A stretch of DNA of 64,000 nucleotides from the sequence record SRR20825010_4291; one strand, given 5' to 3'. Numbering within the stretch: position 1 is the first letter of the stretch; each line of letters starts with the position of its first letter. Both the position numbers and the translations under genes were made by a program. This document shows positions 2,962 to 59,277 of this stretch, one piece after another. Below the pieces are notes generated by a model. It was not told the DNA's origin, searched no databases, and saw only the letters and a list, made by a program, of their open reading frames with translations.

Positions 2962-5373
2962 TTATTTAAGTTTTATTTTTTTCGAAATCAGGTTAATAGA
3001 CACAGTGGTGAAAACCACTATAGAAATACTGCTTAGCGGCATAAGAATGGCCGCAACGAGAGGCGTTAACTCTCCAGCTACAGCAAAACTTATCCCAATG
3101 CCATTGTAGAGTAAAGACAAGATGAAACTAGCTAAAATGACATTTCTTCCCTCGTGAGCAAGCTTGATGAATTTATGTAAATCCATCAAGTTGGATGCTT
3201 TTAAAATAGCATCACTGGCGGGAGAAAAGAGCGATACATCCTCAGTAATGGCAATACCCACCTTACTTTGCTGTAATGCACCAGCATCATTTAGACCATC
3301 GCCCAACATGATTACTTCATTACCATTGGCTTGAACTTCTTTGATGGCCTTGAGTTTGTCTTCGGGGCTTTGGTTAAAGCGTAAAGCTGAACTTGCCGGA
3401 AACATAGATTTTAAACGTTCGGCTTCTTTATCGTTATCGCCAGAAAGTACCTGAAACTTGAATTTATCTTTCAATGCGTCCAGCAAAACACTCAATCCTT
3501 TTCTATAAGTCGCTTCAAAACTGAAGTAGCCTTTATAGTCATCGCCTATGCTTAGATGTACCTGAGTGGCATTGTTTTGAGTGTTTGTTTCTACTCCTAA
3601 AAATTTGGCAGAGCCAACCTTAACAGTCAAACCACTAACCACAGCCACAAAGCCCTTGCCCTCTATTTCATCAAAAGACTCTATGCTGTAATCGAAACCT
3701 TTGGCTTCGGTAAACTGCTTTATCCAACGACTCAAGGGATGTGTACTACTAGCTACTGCTGTATTGATAAGCGCTTTTTCAGCTTCAGAAAGTTCTTCTC
3801 CACAAAATTTTAAAGCTTCACCCTGTGTTTCGGTAATCGTCCCTGTTTTATCGAAAACGATTGTGTTAGTAGCGTTCAGTTTTTCAATAACATCTGCATT
3901 TTTCAGGTAGAAATGATTTCTCCCAAAAACACGCATGATACTGCCCATGGTGAATGGCGTAGAAAGTGCCAAAGCACAAGGGCAAGCAATAATTAGGACA
4001 GCTGTAAACACGAGCCAAGTTTGACTTGGGTCTGTCAGTTGCCAAAAAATAGCCGAGCCAAAGGCAATCAGAAGTATAACTAGCGTAAAGTAGCGACTTA
4101 CTTTATCGACCAGCTTAGTGTGGGTTTCCTTTTCTCCAAAGGCATCGTTATTCCAAAGTTGCGTGAGGTAACTCTGCGAAACTTCTTTCTGAACGATAAA
4201 GCGAACCTGTTTTCCCACTTGTCTTCCACCAGCATAAACATAATCACCTTTTTTACGCGCTACAGGCACCGATTCTCCTGTTACAAAACTGTAATCTATA
4301 GAAGCGTAATCGTCAATTAATATGGCATCGGCAGGGAGCACTTCCCCATTTCTGAGCATCACTTCATCGCCTTTCTTCAACTCCTTAACAGGTACTGGGG
4401 CAAAAACATCATTAATTTTCTTTTGAACCGCTAGTGGGAAGTAAGATTGGTAATCTCGATCGAATGAAAGCGCAGCGTAAGTTTTACCCTGGAACCATTT
4501 CCCTATGAGAAGAAAAAACACCAACCCGACCAAAGAATCTAAATAACCAGGACCAACATCTGCAATAACTTCATAGCTGCTTCGAACAAAGAGCGCCAAT
4601 AAACCGATGGCAATTGGCACGTCTATGTTGGCGAATTTTTGCTTTGCACTCTTTAATGCCGAAGTGAAATATTCGTCTCCAGCATAAAAAACGACTGGAA
4701 TAGAAAGTGCTAAGTTTAAATACCTGAAAAAACCTCGGTAATCCTCTTCAATACCTACTATACCCAAATAATCAGGAAAACTGAGCAACATTACATTACC
4801 AAAACAGAAACCAGCAATCCCCATTTTAATGAGTAATTGTTTATCAAAAGCCCTTTGTGGTTTTTTAGATTGGTCTGAATCTTTCAAGTTAATCTGCGGG
4901 CCATAACCAATCGAATCGAGCATTTCGGCCAATTGCCTTAAGCTCATTTCATCCGACTTATAATTGACCGTCAGTTTCTTTGATGAAAAGTTAATTGATG
5001 AATCAAGCACCGCTGTGCTCAAGCGATCTAGGCTTTCGAGCAACCAAATACATGAACTACAATGTACATTGGGAATGTGTAGTGTAGCTCTTTGAAAACC
5101 TTCGCCTTCAAAATCTAACACTTCTCTTTTAATGGATTCATTGTCCAAAAAATCGAAGATGGAATGCTCTGCTTTATCTTTGACAGTAAACCCTGGGGTG
5201 TTTTCCATGGCGTAATAATCACAGAGATCATTGCTACTTAAAATTTCATATACCGTTTTACAGCCGTTGCAACAGAAGTTATGCTCTTCAAAGGTCAATT
5301 TCCCTTCAAGGCAATCTTCTCCACAGTGATAGCACTTGGTTTCTGGTTTCGCTATGGATTTTACTGAACTCAA
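2962..5373 (-). CDS. ccoI: Heavy-metal (Cu) P1B-type ATPase, CcoI/FixI type
   Basis: N-terminal CYHCG..FCCNGC, HMA CSSC, TGES, CPCAL, DKTGT, GDGLND; adjacent to ccoS and hemN. Confidence 0.9.
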   Translation of the reverse strand: MSSVKSIAKPETKCYHCGEDCLEGKLTFEEHNFCCNGCKTVYEILSSNDLCDYYAMENTPGFTVKDKAEHSIFDFLDNESIKREVLDFEGEGFQRATLHIPNVHCSSCIWLLESLDRLSTAVLDSSINFSSKKLTVNYKSDEMSLRQLAEMLDSIGYGPQINLKDSDQSKKPQRAFDKQLLIKMGIAGFCFGNVMLLSFPDYLGIVGIEEDYRGFFRYLNLALSIPVVFYAGDEYFTSALKSAKQKFANIDVPIAIGLLALFVRSSYEVIADVGPGYLDSLVGLVFFLLIGKWFQGKTYAALSFDRDYQSYFPLAVQKKINDVFAPVPVKELKKGDEVMLRNGEVLPADAILIDDYASIDYSFVTGESVPVARKKGDYVYAGGRQVGKQVRFIVQKEVSQSYLTQLWNNDAFGEKETHTKLVDKVSRYFTLVILLIAFGSAIFWQLTDPSQTWLVFTAVLIIACPCALALSTPFTMGSIMRVFGRNHFYLKNADVIEKLNATNTIVFDKTGTITETQGEALKFCGEELSEAEKALINTAVASSTHPLSRWIKQFTEAKGFDYSIESFDEIEGKGFVAVVSGLTVKVGSAKFLGVETNTQNNATQVHLSIGDDYKGYFSFEATYRKGLSVLLDALKDKFKFQVLSGDNDKEAERLKSMFPASSALRFNQSPEDKLKAIKEVQANGNEVIMLGDGLNDAGALQQSKVGIAITEDVSLFSPASDAILKASNLMDLHKFIKLAHEGRNVILASFILSLLYNGIGISFAVAGELTPLVAAILMPLSSISIVVFTTVSINLISKKIKLK

Positions 5374-22667: not shown

Positions 22668-23581
22668 AATTGTGTCCCTCTTAAAAACGATTCAATATCC
22701 ATTCGTTTCTTTCCTTCCATTTGCAATTCGGTAATGGCCAAAGCGCCCGTTCCTGTTTGAATATGAAGGAAAGTTTTATTGTCGGTTTTGTATTCACCTG
22801 GCTCAGTTTTTTTGCCTGAGTCCATTTTTTTGGTGGCGAAAATTTTAAAGTTTTTATCGTTGATGCATGTCCAAGCTGCGGGATAAGGCGATAAACCTCG
22901 AATGAAATTATAGACTTCTTCGGTTGGTTTCTTCCAGTCAATTTCGCAGGTCTCTTTAAATATTTTAGGCGCATGCTTAATCTCCACCGACTCGTCTTGT
23001 GGCAGTTGCGGATAATCACCCGCCTCAATGGCACGAACCGTTTTGAGCACCAATTTGGCACCTCGCTGCATTAGTCTTTCATATACATCGCCTACATTAT
23101 CTTCTTCGCCTATGGGTTCTTTTTCTTGGAAAATAACATTTCCAGTATCAATCTCATGTTTCAGGAAGAAGGTGGTCACACCCGTTTCTTTTTCACCATT
23201 GATAATGGCCCAGTTGATAGGCGCAGCACCTCGGTATTGTGGCAACAAAGAACCATGTAGGTTGAAAGTACCAATTTCGGGCATGTCCCAAACAGCTACG
23301 GGCAGCATTCTAAAAGCCACCACAATTTGCAGGTTGGCATTGTAGCTTTTCAGCTCTTCTAAAAACTCTGGGGACTTTAAATTGGTAGGCTGCAACACAG
23401 GAATATTCTGCGAAACGGCATAGTCCTTCACCGGTGTAGTAGTTAATTTTTGCCCCCTGCCCTTCGGACGGTCAGGCGCAGTGACCACGGCCACCACATT
23501 GACGCCATTTTCAACCAAAATTTGTAAGCTAGGCACCGCAAACTCAGGCGTGCCCATATATATAATTTTTAAGTCTTTCAT
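22664..23581 (-). CDS. fmt: Methionyl-tRNA formyltransferase
   Basis: MGTPEFA, PDRPKGRG, NLHGSLLPQYRGAAPI, GVTTF..IDTG. Confidence 0.97.
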   Translation of the reverse strand: MKDLKIIYMGTPEFAVPSLQILVENGVNVVAVVTAPDRPKGRGQKLTTTPVKDYAVSQNIPVLQPTNLKSPEFLEELKSYNANLQIVVAFRMLPVAVWDMPEIGTFNLHGSLLPQYRGAAPINWAIINGEKETGVTTFFLKHEIDTGNVIFQEKEPIGEEDNVGDVYERLMQRGAKLVLKTVRAIEAGDYPQLPQDESVEIKHAPKIFKETCEIDWKKPTEEVYNFIRGLSPYPAAWTCINDKNFKIFATKKMDSGKKTEPGEYKTDNKTFLHIQTGTGALAITELQMEGKKRMDIESFLRGTQL

Positions 23582-23730
23582 CTATGTTTTTAGAGTCCCA
23601 CAAAAATAGGGAAATGGTATGAGTATTGGGAATTTTGGTAACTCTCATAATGGCACAACGGGAATAACAAATCATAAATTCATATTGACTGGCTATATGA
23701 AGAGTGAGCTTTCAACAGCTCAATTTAAAC

Positions 23731-24726
23731 TTATGCCTCTATTGAGTTGATAAATGTAGAGTCTTTCTGTTTTATCAGTTTCGTAACTAATGTATTAGGA
23801 TGCTTTGTCGCCAATTCATTAATATATTTCTGGGCTTTCCTTAATCGTGCTTTGTCTACACTATTAAGATACGAGAGCCATCCCTCCACATGTCTTAGAA
23901 GTTCCTCGTTTGTCTGTTCACCAACAAGTGTCAAATGATGAATTTTTGCTCTTAAAGTCTTATATTTTCCCCTTCCAATTCCGACCCTTTCCTCAGATAT
24001 GACCAATCCTGTCACAATTTTAGCCCTTGCTGAGCCTGAAATTCTAGTTTTTTTGTGATTGAGTTTAAATCCTTCACTATTGATGATATTATCAATCATC
24101 GGCAAAATTTTCACCACATTCGAAGGACTAAGACCTGAAAATGAAAGGTCATCAGCATACCTCGTATAAGTTATACCTCTTTTACCAACATATCCGAGAA
24201 CCCTCAAGTCTAACTTCCAAGAAGCGAGATTAGCAATTATCGGTGAACATGGACTGCCTTGAGGTAAAGCATCCTTATATGTACAGATATTAGAAAAGAC
24301 AGTTGAAATAAGATCATTATACCCCAGAGACTTAAAAACACTAAACACCTGATTGGAATTTACACTTGGGAAAAAGTCCTTAATATCAAGGTTTAGGATT
24401 GTATTTGCACCTAAGTGCGGAAGGGCATTATCTAAGGTTGAACTCTTTTTCTTAAAACCTTTACAAGAAGGAGAAACATGTGTGTTATTTAAAATATTTA
24501 CTAAGATCCACGATTGAAGACCTTTGAGCTTCTTACTAGGTTGACTAATTGTACGTTTACCTCCTGATTTTTTAGGAATCTCGTAAGTCTTATAGTATTT
24601 ATTGGAGTGATATGATAATTGATAAATAGTATAGTTTGATATATGAATGACTTTTGAGAACTCGTCAATACTACGAATCACAGGCAATCCAAGCATACTA
24701 AGCTTAATGATTTCAGTCTTTACCAT
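23731..24726 (-). CDS. Retron-type reverse transcriptase
   Basis: PKKSGGKRTI, region X NALPH (NAxxH), LDIKDFFPS, LPQGSPCSP, catalytic YADD (aa 190-193), region Y VTG (aa 238-240); 331 aa, no maturase or endonuclease domain. Confidence 0.95.
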   Translation of the reverse strand: MVKTEIIKLSMLGLPVIRSIDEFSKVIHISNYTIYQLSYHSNKYYKTYEIPKKSGGKRTISQPSKKLKGLQSWILVNILNNTHVSPSCKGFKKKSSTLDNALPHLGANTILNLDIKDFFPSVNSNQVFSVFKSLGYNDLISTVFSNICTYKDALPQGSPCSPIIANLASWKLDLRVLGYVGKRGITYTRYADDLSFSGLSPSNVVKILPMIDNIINSEGFKLNHKKTRISGSARAKIVTGLVISEERVGIGRGKYKTLRAKIHHLTLVGEQTNEELLRHVEGWLSYLNSVDKARLRKAQKYINELATKHPNTLVTKLIKQKDSTFINSIEA

Positions 24727-24746
24727 ACTTAATATTAATGAAGGAT

Positions 24747-24922
24747 GGGTAGTCCTTTTTACTCCTCAAATTTTGAGTGAAGTTTAAGTTTGAAAGCTTC
24801 AACGAAGCTTTTGAGCTTAAAATTTGCGATTATAACGCTGTGTTTTACTCTCGGATGCCGAAACAACATCCACTCGATTGTACATTGCGAACAATGTAAC
24901 TTAGTCTAAAAAGAACATACCC
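24747..24922 (-). ncRNA. Retron msr-msd non-coding RNA
   Basis: RNA 5' arm GGGUAUGUUCUUUUUA (24922-24907) pairs with 3' arm UAAAAAGGACUACCC (24761-24747); candidate branching G at 24906; msr hairpins at 24881-24898 and 24853-24871; msd hairpin at 24777-24827. Confidence 0.88.
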
Positions 24923-25816
24923 TTACACCTTCAGTTTCTTATTTCTATTTCTCAAATTTAATATTTCTAGTCTTAAGTTATCAATTTCTGATTTTTCATC
25001 CTGCCTTTTTACTCTAGTCCTTGTTTTCTGAAAGGCCGAGAGACTATTAGAACCCAATGTGGTTATTTTATATCCTTCTGTGGTTAATTGAACGTATCGT
25101 TTTTTTATCAACATTGTTAGAGCAATAGTGGCTGTCTGGAAAGCGTTTTTCTCATCTTCGGTAGCAGAGGCTACAATGTTTATTAAAGTTGTCTTGGTAA
25201 CAGGTTCTAGAAGATATATTGAAGGCAACAAAAAATTATCCAATTGTAATAATGAAATCTTCTCATGATGCTTATTGCTTTGTCTTTTCATCTTCTTGAG
25301 AGCAGACGTTAGCTTGTCTATTCCATTATCGATTTCCACTGGATTGATAAACAATACATTTGATGAGTTCGACTTCCTAACTAATTTCAGAGGCCCTTGA
25401 TTAATAAAGCTTTTATCCTTTTTATATCTCTCATCAATAACACAAATAAGCTTTTCCCTTAATTTTTCATCATTTGAAAATGCTCCAAGCTCAGCAAAGG
25501 ATCCAGGACTTTCAGGTATCAAAACTATAGCATCAACACTGTTAGCTAGAATACCTTCAAGTGAGAGCAAATCCTTAGTTCTTGAGCTATAGAGAAGCTC
25601 TTCAAATATATCTTCTGGATATATAATATCTATCCAAAAATCGCCCTTTAGAAGTTCAGCTATTTTATATCTCAGTTTTTCTTTTTGATTAATGTCTGCG
25701 CCACATAAAAATATAGTGGTTTTATAATTATTAGCAGGCCGGTATATATCATCCCTGATTTTATTTGAGATGTGGATGCAATCCTCTTTTGAAATATGAT
25801 TATGACTCTTAATCAC
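24923..25816 (-). CDS. Retron effector: nucleoside-deoxyribosyltransferase-like domain plus C-terminal winged helix (Ec86/Ec73/St85-type)
   Basis: TIFLCGA, YPEDIFEELL, LLSLE..LA.SVD, PESPGSFAELGAF (E109), SFINQGP; C-terminal LIKKRYVQLTTEGYKITTLG; directly upstream of the msr/msd and RT. Confidence 0.85.
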   Translation of the reverse strand: MIKSHNHISKEDCIHISNKIRDDIYRPANNYKTTIFLCGADINQKEKLRYKIAELLKGDFWIDIIYPEDIFEELLYSSRTKDLLSLEGILANSVDAIVLIPESPGSFAELGAFSNDEKLREKLICVIDERYKKDKSFINQGPLKLVRKSNSSNVLFINPVEIDNGIDKLTSALKKMKRQSNKHHEKISLLQLDNFLLPSIYLLEPVTKTTLINIVASATEDEKNAFQTATIALTMLIKKRYVQLTTEGYKITTLGSNSLSAFQKTRTRVKRQDEKSEIDNLRLEILNLRNRNKKLKV

Positions 25817-25992
25817 TCTTTAACTGCTGGTTTCTATTATGTGACGTATGTTAATGAAGATTTCGTTTCCTACTCCTTTCAAAGATTTATTCAATATAAG
25901 AAAGTTAGTTTTACTTGTTATTGATTGTGGTAACTCTTCTTTCCTTTTGGTAAAGTTCTGCACTATCTGAAAATAATGCCCTAAGAGGTTTG

Positions 25993-27159
25993 TTACTCAA
26001 AATCCTTATACAACAAATATTGTTTTCTTTTCGCCTTGTAAGCGTTCAAATCTTCTTGCCAAGTCGCTTTAATTTCTCCCTCGGTCATTCCGGCTTCAAT
26101 CTGCTTTCGCAGTTCGGCAGTTCCAGCCAAGAGGGTAAGGTAATCTTTGAAGAATTCGGTTTTGTCTTTTAAGGCTTCGTAATAAGCAATGAGGTATCGC
26201 AAGGTCAGTTCATGCGGTTGATCCACGACAGAAAAGCTTTGACCAAAGCATTCCTTTCCTTCCAGTGGTGGATATTTAGAGCCTTCATTGGGTTGCGGAG
26301 TGAAAGTATAAGAACCCAAACTAAAATCAGGGTGACCAATTACTTCGAAAGGGAAATCGGTTCCTCGGCCTACGCTTACTACCGTGCCCTCAAAAAAACC
26401 AAGGGAAGGATAAAGCGCAATAGCATTATCGGTGGGTAAATTGGGCGAAGGTTTTACAAGCAATAAATAAGTAGCATTATGATCCCAGCCTTTCATTTTT
26501 ATAACGGCCAAATCAGCTTTTACGCCATTTTCTAACCATCCTTCTCCATTAATCATTTGCGCCAGTTCGCCCACGGTAAGGCCATGAACAACCGGAATTG
26601 GATGCATGGCAATAAAACCATTAACGCTATCCTCTTTTACAGGGCCGTCAATGTACATACCGTTCGGATTGGGCCTATCGAACACAATGACCTGCTTATT
26701 ATTTTCAGCTGCGGCCTCCATAATATAATGCATGGTGCTGATGAAGGTATAAAAGCGCACCCCTACATCTTGAATATCGAAAATGAGTACGTCTACATCT
26801 TTCAACATTTCTGGTGTCGGTTTTTTATTGCTGCCGTAAATCGAAACGATTGGAATGCCTGTTTTTCCGTCTTTGGAATCGTTGACTTTTTCGCCATCTG
26901 GCGCTTCGCCTCTAAAGCCGTGCTCAGGTGCCATCACTTTTTTAATGTCAACGCCCAAGCTGTGCAACGTATCTACCAAATGCGTTTGGCCCACCATAGA
27001 AGTTTGATTGACCACCAAAGCCACTCGTTTACCTTCCAGCAATGGGAGGTATTCTTTCATTCTTTCGGCTCCTACTTGGAGGGTTTCCTTTTGCTCGGTT
27101 TGCGATTGACAGCCAAAACATGTCATTAAAATAAAAAGGGCAGATAGCAGTCTATTCAT
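25993..27159 (-). CDS. NamZ/DUF1343 exo-beta-N-acetylmuramidase family lipoprotein
   Basis: VNQTS, APEHGFRG, FDIQDVGVRFYTF, DRPNP, HGLTVGELA, PSPNLP, SVGRGT. Confidence 0.9.
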   Translation of the reverse strand: MNRLLSALFILMTCFGCQSQTEQKETLQVGAERMKEYLPLLEGKRVALVVNQTSMVGQTHLVDTLHSLGVDIKKVMAPEHGFRGEAPDGEKVNDSKDGKTGIPIVSIYGSNKKPTPEMLKDVDVLIFDIQDVGVRFYTFISTMHYIMEAAAENNKQVIVFDRPNPNGMYIDGPVKEDSVNGFIAMHPIPVVHGLTVGELAQMINGEGWLENGVKADLAVIKMKGWDHNATYLLLVKPSPNLPTDNAIALYPSLGFFEGTVVSVGRGTDFPFEVIGHPDFSLGSYTFTPQPNEGSKYPPLEGKECFGQSFSVVDQPHELTLRYLIAYYEALKDKTEFFKDYLTLLAGTAELRKQIEAGMTEGEIKATWQEDLNAYKAKRKQYLLYKDFE

Positions 27160-47386: not shown

Positions 47387-47593
47387 GTCCAATTTCGCTG
47401 AAGCTTCGGTCGACAATGCCCCGGCTTTGCGCTGACGCGCTATGGCGGACGAAGACTCGCCTACGCTAAAGCTTCGATGGGTACTAGTGGAGTTTCTCCA
47501 CCGAAGCCCGCATGTACTGAGGCCTCGAAACAACAGGTGTTGGTTAAAAAAAATAAAGCCCGCCTTCGCTCTAAAGAGCTATGGCGGGCGAAG
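47387..47593. repeat. Cluster of about four related imperfect palindromes (CGCCTWCGCT..AGCTWYGGCG-like)
   Basis: Copies at about 47394-47409, 47421-47454, 47458-47476 and 47558-47593. Confidence 0.65.
47546..47589 (-). terminator. ssrA intrinsic terminator
   Basis: GCCCGCC...GGCGGGC stem followed on the minus strand by TTTATTTTTTTT. Confidence 0.7.
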
Positions 47594-47961
47594 GTGGAGC
47601 CGGAGGGGTTCGAACCCTCGTCCAGATAAGGAACACGAAGCGCCTTCTACATGCTTATTCGCTGATTAATTTTCGAGTCTAGCAAGGTCAGCAACCAACC
47701 TAATCTATACCTTATTCGCAATTGATCTTACCGCTTCTATCACGACACCTAGAAACGGCCAGTTCTGCGTGTGATGCCTCGATTTCCCACCCGGCAGAAC
47801 GGAGGGTGAGAGAGACACATTACTGCTAATTCTTAATTAGGCAGCAAGGGCAAATTGTCTTTCGCCAATTATAAATGTGAAAGTTTTATTTAAGGGAAAT
47901 ACTCACAACTCCCTGCATGCTTACACTTGAATTACACCTACTGTCAATTCCAGTCGGCCCC
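47593..47961 (-). ncRNA. ssrA: tmRNA
   Basis: 5' GGGGCCGACTGGAATTGAC; 3' T-arm GAGGGTTCGAACCCCTC and CGGCTCCACC (G3-U70 Ala identity pair); tag ORF at 47866-47837 encodes GERQFALAA*. Confidence 0.96.
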
Positions 47962-57285: not shown

Positions 57286-57712
57286 GTTTTGTTAGTTTAA
57301 TTACTCTCGAATTATCGTCTAGTACCTCAATAAATATCTTCATATATTCATCAGGGATCAATTCACTAATTTTTTCAGGCCATTCAATCAAACACAAATT
57401 GCCGGAATCGAAGTATTCTTCAATACCGATATTGGCCAATTCTTCAATATCTTCAATTCTATAAAAGTCGAAATGGTAAATGGCTCTTCCCTTATCGGTC
57501 AAATACTCATTCACCAATGAAAAAGTTGGGCTCTGAACCAAATCCACCACACCTAAGTCGCTACAAATCGCCTTTGAAAGCGTGGTTTTACCAGCTGCCA
57601 TTTGCCCCATAAGTAGCCAAATATTATGCTCCCTACCAAAGGTGATTATTTGTTGGGCGACATTTTTCAAGTCGTTTAGCCCTTTTGATTCCAAGCGCAA
57701 TTCAGTGGTCAT
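57278..57712 (-). CDS. tsaE: tRNA t6A biosynthesis ATPase
   Basis: GQMAAGKTT, SPTFSLVNEY, HFDFYR, IEW. Confidence 0.95.
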   Translation of the reverse strand: MTTELRLESKGLNDLKNVAQQIITFGREHNIWLLMGQMAAGKTTLSKAICSDLGVVDLVQSPTFSLVNEYLTDKGRAIYHFDFYRIEDIEELANIGIEEYFDSGNLCLIEWPEKISELIPDEYMKIFIEVLDDNSRVIKLTKHD

Positions 57713-59277
57713 TATGCCCTTTTCGAATTTAGCGAAATAAAAGGAATTATCATTTCATCCATGGAAATACCACCATGCTGAAATGTGTCCTTATAGTACT
57801 TCACGTAATGGTTATAGTTATTCGGGTAAGCGAAAAATAGGTCTTCAGTAGCAAAAGCATAGGAAGTAGAAACATTCGGACGCGGTAAGTGTATTTTTAC
57901 CGGATCACGTACCGTATATATAGCCTGATGATCCTTGTAGCCCAAATTCTTACCGTGCTTATACCTTAAATTAGTGTTCACTGTTTTATCACCCGCAATT
58001 TTAAAGGCCTTTTTCACACGATATGTACCGTGGTCGGTAGTAATCATTACCCTCAAGCCTTTGTCGCTGATCATTTTTAGGAGATCGAACAAGGGCGAAT
58101 GAAGAAACCATGATTTAGTTAATGAGCGATAGGCCGATTCGTCTGCCGCCAATTCACGAATCATTCGCATATCCGTTCGGGCATGAGAGAGCATATCTAC
58201 AAAATTGTAGACCACCACATTCAAATCATTTTGAAGCAGGTTATTGAATTGATCGTTCAACTGTTTCCCTTGGGAAGAGTGAATAATTTTATTGTAACTC
58301 GTTTTAATATTGAGCCTTAACCTTTGAATCTGTCGCTTTAAGAACTCTTCCTCATTGTTGTTCTTTCCTTCGTCATCATCATCATTATCGCTAACCCATA
58401 TATCGCTCTCTCTTTTCGACATTTCCAAAGGCATTTGCCCAGAAAAAATAGAATTTCTCGCATAAGCGGTAGTCGTTGGTAAAATGGAATAATAAGCAGA
58501 CTCTTCTAGAATGTTAAAGTAGTCTGTCAACTCACCTTCAATGGTTTTCCATTGGTCGTAACGCAGGTTATCGATCACAATCAGAAACAAAGGCTTATCC
58601 TTTACTTCCGGAAAAACCTTCGCCTTAAGCAAATTATTGGAAAGCAGTGGGCGATCGATATTGGGGTCATTCAACCAATCTTCGTAATTGTCGATCACAA
58701 ACTGAGCAAAGTTACTATTGGCTTCAATCTTCTGCATGTCCAAAATTTCGCCCATGCTTTTGTTCTCGGTTTTATCAATTTCCAATTCCCAATACACCAG
58801 CTTTTTATGGATTTCCACCCACTCTTTATGATCCATATATTCGTTATAGGCCATACTGATGTTTCGAAACTCTTGCTGATATTCAATATTCGTGCGCTCT
58901 GTCACCAACCTTTTATTATCAAGAATCTTCTTCACAGAAAGTAAAATCTGACTTGGGTTCAGCGGTTTGATCAGGTAATCCGCAATATGAGATCCAATCG
59001 CTTCTTCCATAATACTCTCTTCTTCGCTTTTGGTAATCATTACCACTGGCAAAGAAGGGCGCTTACTTTTGATGTATTTAAGGGTTTCAAGGCCCGTCAT
59101 ACCTGGCATATTCTCATCTAAAAAAACCACATCAAACTGCTGATTTTCAACCGCATCAATGGCATCGGCACCACTCGCGACTGGAGTGATGTCGTAACCT
59201 CTATCGGTAAGGAACAAGATGTGTGGTTTAAGCAGGTCTATCTCATCATCTGCCCATAAAATATTATATCTTTGCAT
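57712..59277 (-). CDS. porX: T9SS-associated response regulator with PglZ domain
   Basis: WADDEIDLLKPH, LDENMPG, DNLRYDQW, LPTTT.YARN, DMLSH, TDHG, FQHGG; upstream of tsaE. Confidence 0.9.
   Translation of the reverse strand: MQRYNILWADDEIDLLKPHILFLTDRGYDITPVASGADAIDAVENQQFDVVFLDENMPGMTGLETLKYIKSKRPSLPVVMITKSEEESIMEEAIGSHIADYLIKPLNPSQILLSVKKILDNKRLVTERTNIEYQQEFRNISMAYNEYMDHKEWVEIHKKLVYWELEIDKTENKSMGEILDMQKIEANSNFAQFVIDNYEDWLNDPNIDRPLLSNNLLKAKVFPEVKDKPLFLIVIDNLRYDQWKTIEGELTDYFNILEESAYYSILPTTTAYARNSIFSGQMPLEMSKRESDIWVSDNDDDDEGKNNNEEEFLKRQIQRLRLNIKTSYNKIIHSSQGKQLNDQFNNLLQNDLNVVVYNFVDMLSHARTDMRMIRELAADESAYRSLTKSWFLHSPLFDLLKMISDKGLRVMITTDHGTYRVKKAFKIAGDKTVNTNLRYKHGKNLGYKDHQAIYTVRDPVKIHLPRPNVSTSYAFATEDLFFAYPNNYNHYVKYYKDTFQHGGISMDEMIIPFISLNSKRA

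Follow-up and report, generated by a model that had tools for sequence, protein, structure and literature searches.

Type II-A retrons combine a reverse transcriptase (RT) and the msr-msd, which is a non-coding RNA (ncRNA), with an associated protein that carries an N-terminal NDT-like and a C-terminal DNA-binding domain. They have been split into three subtypes, namely II-A1 (RT clade 1: St85, Vc81 and Ec73), II-A2, and II-A3 (RT clade 9: Ec86 and Vc137) (Mestre et al. 2020). The logic of the II-A1 retron Sen2 (St85) and the II-A3 retron Eco1 (Ec86) is described as alike in that a complex of RT and multicopy single-stranded DNA (msDNA) restrains the effector; the Sen2 effector, RcaT, is reported to be toxic and to tetramerise, and the Eco1-type RcaT to be dimeric and non-toxic (10.64898/2026.10.13.758329). 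The II-A3 retrons that have been studied come from Proteobacteria and Firmicutes. Here we describe a locus in a 64,000-nucleotide (nt) stretch of sequence record SRR20825010_4291, hereafter the window, which very probably represents an anti-phage system of three parts, namely a complete retron of type II-A3 (Ec86/Eco1-like), in a host that its sequence identifies as a marine, Roseivirga-like member of the Cytophagales (Bacteroidota).

The cassette occupies the minus strand within a larger inserted block:

23582-25992, no strand assigned: whole inserted block, 2,411 bp, between the namZ stop codon and the fmt start codon
24923-25816, minus strand: effector, 297 amino acids (aa), GTG start, NDT-like/winged-helix
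24727-24922, minus strand: spacer between effector and RT, 196 nt
23731-24726, minus strand: retron RT, 331 aa, ATG start

Both open reading frames (ORFs) stand on the minus strand of the window's ORF list exactly where a preliminary description of this DNA, made from the letters alone, had placed them, and the three adjacent minus-strand parts which it proposed (effector, structured spacer and RT) are borne out in position and length. The motifs it named could each be assigned to a definite residue: in the effector FLCGA begins at residue 36 and YPE at residue 66, while PESPGSFAELGAF spans residues 101-113 and includes a glutamate at residue 109, and in the RT NALPH, an instance of NAxxH, begins at residue 100, YADD at 190 and VTG at 238. 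The block is also AT-rich relative to its neighbours, as had been noted, with a guanine-plus-cytosine fraction of 0.32-0.37 across 23500-26249 (500-nt windows) versus 0.40-0.47 on either side. The cassette points in the same direction as namZ and fmt.

The effector matched the PADLOC model NDT_II-A PDLC02930 with 295.5 bits over residues 11-291 and a second NDT_II-A model, PDLC02928, with 131.7 bits, and in NCBIfam it matched STM3845_fam ('retron St85 family effector') with 189.1 bits against a cutoff of 100. Its best match among solved structures was the Ec86 effector, chain 7v9x_C (185.9 bits), a structure that holds both the NDT-like and the DNA-binding domain and that aligned with the window protein over its full length (residues 21-294). 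The predicted domain make-up, N-terminal NDT-like and C-terminal DNA-binding, is the one that defines the associated protein of type II-A. Glutamate 109 is invariant in all 22 aligned effectors and aligns with Ec86 E106, a position at which chain 8qbl_G departs from wild type and which has been described as catalytic (10.1101/2023.08.16.553469); E109 is thus the predicted catalytic glutamate of the window protein.

The RT matched PADLOC RT_II-A PDLC02941 with 412.6 bits and NCBIfam retron_St85_RT with 292.1 bits (cutoff 235), and retron RT models accounted for 25 of its 25 best PADLOC matches. The type II-A matches of both proteins in PADLOC, a comparison that the preliminary description had proposed, agree with its reading of the locus as an intact tripartite type II-A retron, which the solved-structure matches and the RNA covariation presented below also support. 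An RT from a group II intron, a diversity-generating retroelement, an abortive infection system or a defence-associated RT (DRT) system, with an unrelated ORF next to it, would be compatible with the Pfam results, in which the RT shows only the generic RVT_1 domain and the effector none at all. However, in NCBIfam the group II intron RT model reached 70.6 bits against a cutoff of 300, Drt3a 36.8 against 200 and Drt2 36.6 against 390, whereas the retron model passes its cutoff, and the linkage of effector to RT holds in all 19 related loci. Together with the uniformly retron-type PADLOC matches, this leaves, as far as sequence evidence reaches, a non-retron origin of the RT with practically no probability, in keeping with the earlier expectation that it would group with retron RTs.

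We next consider the subtype. Among solved structures the RT scored 304 bits against the Ec86 RT, followed at 123 bits by the next best retron RT, Ec67, and it scored 99-102 bits against the type I-A Ec78 RT chains; the RT module shared by types I-A and II-A1 is clade 1 (Mestre et al. 2020), to which Ec78 would belong if it is placed with that module. BLASTP against Ec86 of E. coli BL21(DE3) gave 51% identity for the RT (156/305) and 39% for the effector (114/292). When scanned with the same PADLOC models, the Ec86 proteins best-matched the same two sub-models (RT 401.7 bits, effector 313.8 bits), and the ranking of the remaining models was nearly alike for the Ec86 and window proteins. We filed the element under II-A3, an assignment that draws on PADLOC sub-models, solved-structure scores and BLASTP. 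A type II-A1 (Sen2/St85-like) toxin-antitoxin retron, with an RcaT that is toxic alone, tetrameric and released by Dam methylation of a GATC site in the msDNA, would account for the NCBIfam name of both proteins, 'retron St85 family', and for the effector's second NDT_II-A match, PDLC02928. That name is broad, however, since it is also carried by the Ec86 genes and even by an Ec78 RT chain, and the II-A1 reading further conflicts with best sub-models that are those of Ec86 itself, with the gap between the Ec86 and Ec78 scores of the RT, with the lack of GATC in the ncRNA, and with the position of the St85 msr-msd, which is described as lying upstream of the effector (PMC11701397), unlike that of the window. 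We regard II-A1 as very improbable, and the predicted subtype is II-A3 (Eco1-like).

A one-genome-per-species scan with the alignment of 22 effectors returned 19 related loci (L001-L019), in every one of which effector and RT share a strand, the RT coming second, with a spacer of 164-200 nt between them. Their effectors are 50-72% and their RTs 59-76% identical to those of the window, their hosts include Flavobacterium sp. XN-5 and Reichenbachiella ulvae, and these relatives already carry the automatic annotation 'retron St85 family' in NCBI records; protein searches recovered hundreds of further relatives at 65-77% identity in aquatic metagenomes. The effector - msr-msd - RT order typical of II-A3 is found in the window, in 19/19 relatives and in BL21(DE3), where one strand carries first the effector (877889-878812), then the ncRNA and then the RT (879050-879937). 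The earlier statement that Ec86 places its effector after the RT was therefore wrong, and the gene order of the window, being the same as that of Ec86, is not unusual.

The spacer between the two genes is strongly structured, as had been proposed, with a minimum free energy (MFE) of -53.4 kcal/mol versus -34.2 +/- 3.9 kcal/mol in shuffled sequences (z = -4.99; 0/200 shuffles fold equally well). Folding and covariation define the following elements:

24747-24922, minus strand: msr-msd ncRNA, about 176 nt, beginning directly after the effector stop codon (fold and covariation)
24907-24922, minus strand: a1 inverted repeat, 5' arm of the closing helix, pairing with 24747-24761 in the MFE fold
24906, minus strand: candidate branching guanosine, the G of an invariant TAG just 3' of a1
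24853-24871, minus strand: conserved msr stem-loop GGATGTTGTTTCGGCATCC, predicted RT-recognition hairpin, identical to Ec86
24783-24822, minus strand: long msd stem-loop (helix 3), predicted template of the msDNA stem-loop
24747-24761, minus strand: a2 inverted repeat, 3' arm of the closing helix (MFE fold, consensus fold and covariation)

We aligned and folded 20 spacers, that of the window and those of the 19 homologous loci, and found that the relatives share the same covarying fold. The consensus comprises 32 pairs, 21 of which show compensatory change on both sides as opposed to 9.8 expected, a number reached by 0/500 shuffles; the share of cells that are paired is 93.5%, compared with 81.1% in shuffles (0/500 as high) and with 40-55% after shifting the partners by 1-3 columns. 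Helix 1, formed by a1 and a2, has 15 pairs, 10 of them with compensatory change, and 93.9% of cells paired; helix 2, the conserved hairpin of near-invariant sequence, has 98.1% of cells paired; and helix 3, the long msd stem-loop, varies in sequence, with 9/9 pairs changing on both sides. The letters T16 T17 T18 A19 G20, with the TAG directly after a1, are invariant in 20/20 spacers. A closing a1/a2 helix with a conserved G beside a1, the general hallmark of retron ncRNAs, is accordingly present in the alignment, and the 2'-OH of G24906 would prime msDNA synthesis. A covariance model built from the 20 spacers scored the window RNA at 168.2 bits and found no second copy in the window. The hairpin GGATGTTGTTTCGGCATCC is letter-for-letter that of the Ec86 ncRNA of BL21(DE3) over 19 nt (L022, positions 4343-4361), and a blastn search with the whole spacer against complete E. 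coli genomes returned no match.

Two further observations concern the ncRNA. The region upstream of the effector, 25817-25992, where a St85-type ncRNA would lie, was tried as a candidate and rejected, with z = +0.85 and 162/200 shuffles folding equally well, and the clade covariance model returned nothing credible there (9.1 bits, E 4.1). The msd stem-loop of the window differs from the ...AAAATCCAGTNGGTTTT... version common among relatives, and its stem holds a double-stranded AAGCTT palindrome (24805-24810 with 24794-24799), the sole palindromic site of the DNA stem; as pure speculation, the system could sense a phage adenine methyltransferase specific for AAGCTT at this site.

We then compared the insertion site with that of relatives. 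The adjacent fmt protein is 80-84% identical to those of named Roseivirga species and 99% identical to metagenomic copies, with further contigs encoding fmt at 90-94% identity, and it is because of these identities that we place the host in a Roseivirga-like lineage, which agrees with the Bacteroidota host proposed at the outset. A metagenome scan with fmt gave 80 loci, and 0/80 contained a match to the RT or the effector; 33 of them have namZ on the fmt strand and upstream of that gene, with aligned ends less than 250 nt apart in 25 of these 33. The closest retron-free relative, L023, has the same gene order and encodes proteins with 83% (fmt), 70% (NamZ), 65% (DHFR) and 74% (SDR) identity, and its namZ stop codon (TAA) is followed directly by the fmt ATG, at the point where the window has 2,411 bp. 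Because namZ and fmt abut in L023, we interpret the AT-rich block as an insertion. The preliminary description had put forward horizontal acquisition, and the comparison of the fmt-namZ junction, abutting in L023 and retron-free at all 80 fmt loci, upholds that proposal.

Four public runs hold parts of the cassette, all as contigs. Two of these, from two studies, are identical to the window across the retron and both flanks and are not independent, as one may be its source. A third run from another study, X3, contains a 7,069-nt contig that covers 23696-25911, where 2,216 nt show 199 differences and 8 indels, and that continues into namZ, as well as a 347-nt contig that bridges fmt into the RT-proximal spacer; its flanks show 164 differences in 2,004 nt on the namZ side and 100 differences in 1,233 nt on the contig with fmt and folA. 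The cassette thus occupies the same junction in a lineage that is about 8-9% diverged at the nucleotide level (about 91% identical), which indicates that the acquisition was not recent, and its divergence is close to that of the flanks, a pattern that agrees with one insertion followed by vertical inheritance. The RT and effector have their best protein matches, at 96% and 92% identity respectively, on a contig with the length of the 7,069-nt one; if, as we infer, the two are the same contig, amino-acid change is well below nucleotide change, as would be expected under purifying selection. This points to a retron that has been retained under constraint, with selection probably acting on the proteins themselves.

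Signals that might drive expression were sought on the coding strand. TAnnTTTG is the -7 consensus of Bacteroidota-type promoters, and four such boxes occur in 2.8 kb compared with about 1.5 expected, too few to argue from. Two are of interest by position:

24953-24960: TAnnTTTG box, 31 nt upstream of a1, inside the 3' end of the effector gene
23601-23608: TAnnTTTG box within the inserted DNA, 20 nt ahead of the fmt ATG

No TAnnTTTG box was found upstream of the effector, and the cassette may therefore be expressed by read-through from namZ. The box at 23601-23608 lies inside the inserted DNA, so the insert may supply a promoter for fmt. A scan for intrinsic terminators gave results at chance (1 versus 1.5 expected). 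These features bear on the idea of a silent cassette, unexpressed or unable to make msDNA and kept only for signals that express the downstream fmt, since the cassette splits a namZ-fmt pair that is contiguous in relatives and places a TAnnTTTG box 20 nt before the fmt ATG. Such a cassette would nevertheless have kept both reading frames and all catalytic motifs intact, an ncRNA with its full covarying fold, and proteins whose identity, despite about 9% divergence of the nucleotides, is still 96% for the RT and 92% for the effector, and we judge this explanation very improbable.

For the type II-A3 retron that we favour, the following course of events is proposed by analogy with Eco1 and other type II retrons (PMC12673091; 10.1101/2023.08.16.553469; 10.64898/2026.10.13.758329). 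The cassette would have entered the zero-length namZ/fmt junction in a Roseivirga-like ancestor and been inherited vertically since. The ncRNA would be transcribed and fold with a1 paired to a2, whereupon the RT would bind the conserved msr hairpin, use the 2'-OH of G24906 as primer and copy the msd, starting near 24762 and proceeding back towards a point near 24840, to give an msDNA of roughly 75-85 nt. The RT-msDNA complex would bind the NDT-like/winged-helix effector and keep it inactive, as in Eco1 filaments, until a phage-made change to the msDNA, for example methylation of the DNA stem-loop, frees or activates it. The effector would then hydrolyse NAD(P)+ or nucleosides via E109 and infection would abort, so that msDNA production and phage defence would be the functions of the locus.

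Several points weigh against this assignment and mechanism. We infer the msDNA, the transcript and the phage phenotype, and the public runs that contain the cassette DNA are assembled contigs. Ec86 D69 corresponds to E72 in the window effector, where the clade consensus is D, and D69 and E106 of Ec86 are described as together locking the ligand (10.1101/2023.08.16.553469). Of the Ec86 ncRNA, the clade covariance model can align just the 19-nt hairpin (18.1 bits, E 0.046), and the remaining RNA has therefore diverged, such that the msr and msd boundaries are extrapolated. An Rfam scan of 23400-26200 gave no match below E = 1; the published II-A3 ncRNA models are Proteobacteria and Firmicutes classes and are not in Rfam, and the clade RNA may represent a separate sequence class with an Ec86-like architecture. 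The ncRNA contains neither GATC nor CCWGG, the known trigger sites of Sen2 and Eco1. Lastly, a sigma-70 promoter scan, which does not cover Bacteroidota promoters, found 9 candidates with 10.5 expected, a result at chance.

The surroundings of the cassette were examined across the 64-kb window, which has 51 non-overlapping ORFs with a length of 130 aa or more. The 49 ORFs outside the retron belong to housekeeping families only, and a search among them for an integrase, a transposase or another defence gene gave none, with PADLOC covering 40 of the 49 as well as the two retron genes and Pfam alone covering the nine nearest neighbours; within this scope the earlier observation that the cassette has no such gene nearby extends to the whole window. 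The only PADLOC match among the 40 was PorX (57712-59277, minus strand), a response regulator of the type IX secretion system (806.7 bits as PorX) whose phosphatase domain also matches BREX PglZ models and which is not a defence gene. The window contains no tRNA gene; its only tRNA-like gene is a transfer-messenger RNA (47593-47961, minus strand; tag peptide GERQFALAA) 22 kb from the retron.

A direct repeat brackets the cassette:

25924-25937, no strand assigned: left copy of a 14-nt direct repeat, 13/14 identical
23632-23645, no strand assigned: right copy of the 14-nt direct repeat, 13/14 identical

An identity of 13/14 was reached by 6/400 shuffles of the two flanks. In the X3 relative the 83-nt stretch between 25911 and 25995 is replaced by 82 unlike letters, and the left copy may therefore not be conserved. 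The repeat is a possible target duplication and a weak lead. No shared termini or comparable repeat were found in the 260 nt upstream and downstream of 17 related loci, the exception being a promoter-like motif (GTTAnCGGTAATTTTAA...) in L002 (1-2496), of which one copy directly precedes the effector and a second lies downstream of the RT. Motifs similar to it precede the effector in L001, L006, L007, L010 and L012, and it may be a promoter shared within Bacteroidota or mark where a neighbouring cassette begins. A retron-intrinsic, RT- or msDNA-dependent route of insertion, by which the cassette would have travelled as a unit, lacking any recombinase gene, into the zero-length junction and produced a 14-nt target duplication there, is in our estimate very unlikely.

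The namZ-fmt junction was also considered as an insertion hotspot. Eight of the 33 namZ-fmt loci, all more distant relatives, have 0.75-4.2 kb between the two genes, and in seven of the eight this gap holds a recurring ORF of 211-220 aa:

L024, L027, L034, L036, L038, L039 and L043: 211-220-aa ORF between namZ and fmt

The copy of L027, the single one scanned, has an HhH-GPD base-excision-repair domain, which makes the gap ORF look like a resident repair gene; it is absent from the window and from L023. We rejected the hotspot since the gap ORFs resemble a resident gene and not cargo.

The relatives have other neighbours. Among 85 flanking ORFs in the 17 loci with scannable flanks, an AAA_15/OLD-type ATPase gene directly adjoins the cassette at a distance of 35-220 nt in five:

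L003, 3110-4897: AAA_15 ATPase gene beside the cassette
L008, 7142-8965: AAA_15 ATPase gene beside the cassette
L010, 7311-8963: AAA_15 ATPase gene beside the cassette
L013, 238-2022: AAA_15 ATPase gene beside the cassette
L018, 7127-8989: AAA_15 ATPase gene beside the cassette

The genes of L003 and L013 add an OLD-like TOPRIM domain. This adjacency could be mere co-location in defence islands, or it could represent a recurring variant with four parts, one of them a borrowed type I-B-like effector. Other relatives adjoin restriction-modification or methyltransferase, GmrSD, HEPN or HipA/Fic genes, and a tyrosine integrase lies within 4 kb in 2/17 and a transposase in 3/17; unlike these relatives, the window copy has none of these as neighbours, be it ATPase, restriction-modification, GmrSD, HEPN, HipA/Fic, integrase or transposase. 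Seven of the 19 cassettes, with effector identities of 55-67%, occur in metagenome-assembled genomes labelled outside Bacteroidota (L003, L004, L005, L012, L015, L016 and L019), under the labels Smithellaceae, Marinamargulisbacteria, Ignavibacteriales, Pseudomonadota, Planctomycetota, Gammaproteobacteria and Nitrospirae, which reflects either wide horizontal spread or binning errors. A scan of a viral contig collection with the effector alignment gave one pattern match and no confirmed clade member.

The family to which this locus belongs is known: NCBI annotation models would name both genes automatically, and close homologues already bear those names, so that the view of the preliminary description, a known family with an uncharacterised member, stands on the family scans. 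On its sequence, the locus is a well-supported, good example of a known system and not a new kind, and our understanding of retrons is unchanged by it. We found no characterised Bacteroidota II-A3 retron in the literature searched, although the supplementary tables of Mestre et al. 2020 may list some. The table of an experimental census holds six II-A3 retrons in seven rows, none of them from Bacteroidetes, and a 2026 SPIRE metagenome survey gives 28 II-A3 candidates, dominated by Bacillota (46%), with II-A3 ncRNA models labelled only 'firmi/proteo'. The II-A3 retrons of the phylum Bacteroidota thus appear to be untested experimentally. The window copy and its relatives from aquatic metagenomes outline a well-populated Bacteroidota branch of II-A3 that has kept the Ec86 RT-recognition hairpin exactly, and the covariation-backed ncRNA model could be used by annotation pipelines for this branch. 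The locus also offers a clean natural example of a housekeeping gene pair in which a defence cassette has become fixed, and Bacteroidota, for which such tools are scarce, could be a setting in which to try the compact, apparently self-sufficient cassette for producing msDNA or for recombineering.

Comparison with the two described systems places the window copy closer to one of them. Retron-Sen2 (St85, II-A1) shares the effector superfamily, its RcaT having an NDT-like and a DNA-binding domain, and the same NCBIfam name; its RT belongs to clade 1, as opposed to clade 9 for the Ec86 type (Mestre et al. 2020), and its trigger is a GATC site, of which the window ncRNA has none. The distinction also affects what the effector alone would be expected to do: the preliminary description would have taken a non-toxic effector as grounds for refutation, which is not valid, as the Eco1 effector is described as non-toxic alone and yet protective (10.64898/2026.10.13.758329). 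Because Eco1-type effectors are reported to be non-toxic alone, a lack of toxicity would not count against a II-A3 retron here.

Retron-Eco1 (Ec86, II-A3, BL21(DE3)) has the same three parts in the same order on a single strand. The two share their best PADLOC sub-models and the catalytic glutamate, and their RTs (51%) and effectors (39%) are identical to these extents over nearly full length. The ncRNA layout is also common to both, with a1, TAG, a variable hairpin, the conserved hairpin, a long msd stem-loop and a2. They differ in that the Ec86 a1 overlaps the 3' end of the effector gene, whose stop codon TAG supplies the G after a1 (...TTAG...), whereas a1 of the window begins just after the effector stop codon; in that the window clade has an extra conserved hairpin and a motif (TTCACTCAA...GTAAA) just before a2, unlike Ec86; and in that CCWGG, the trigger site of Eco1, is absent from the window ncRNA. 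The host of Ec86 belongs to the Pseudomonadota and that of the window copy to the Bacteroidota, and while Ec86 is cargo of a P2-like prophage and sits among phage genes, the window copy stands alone between housekeeping genes.

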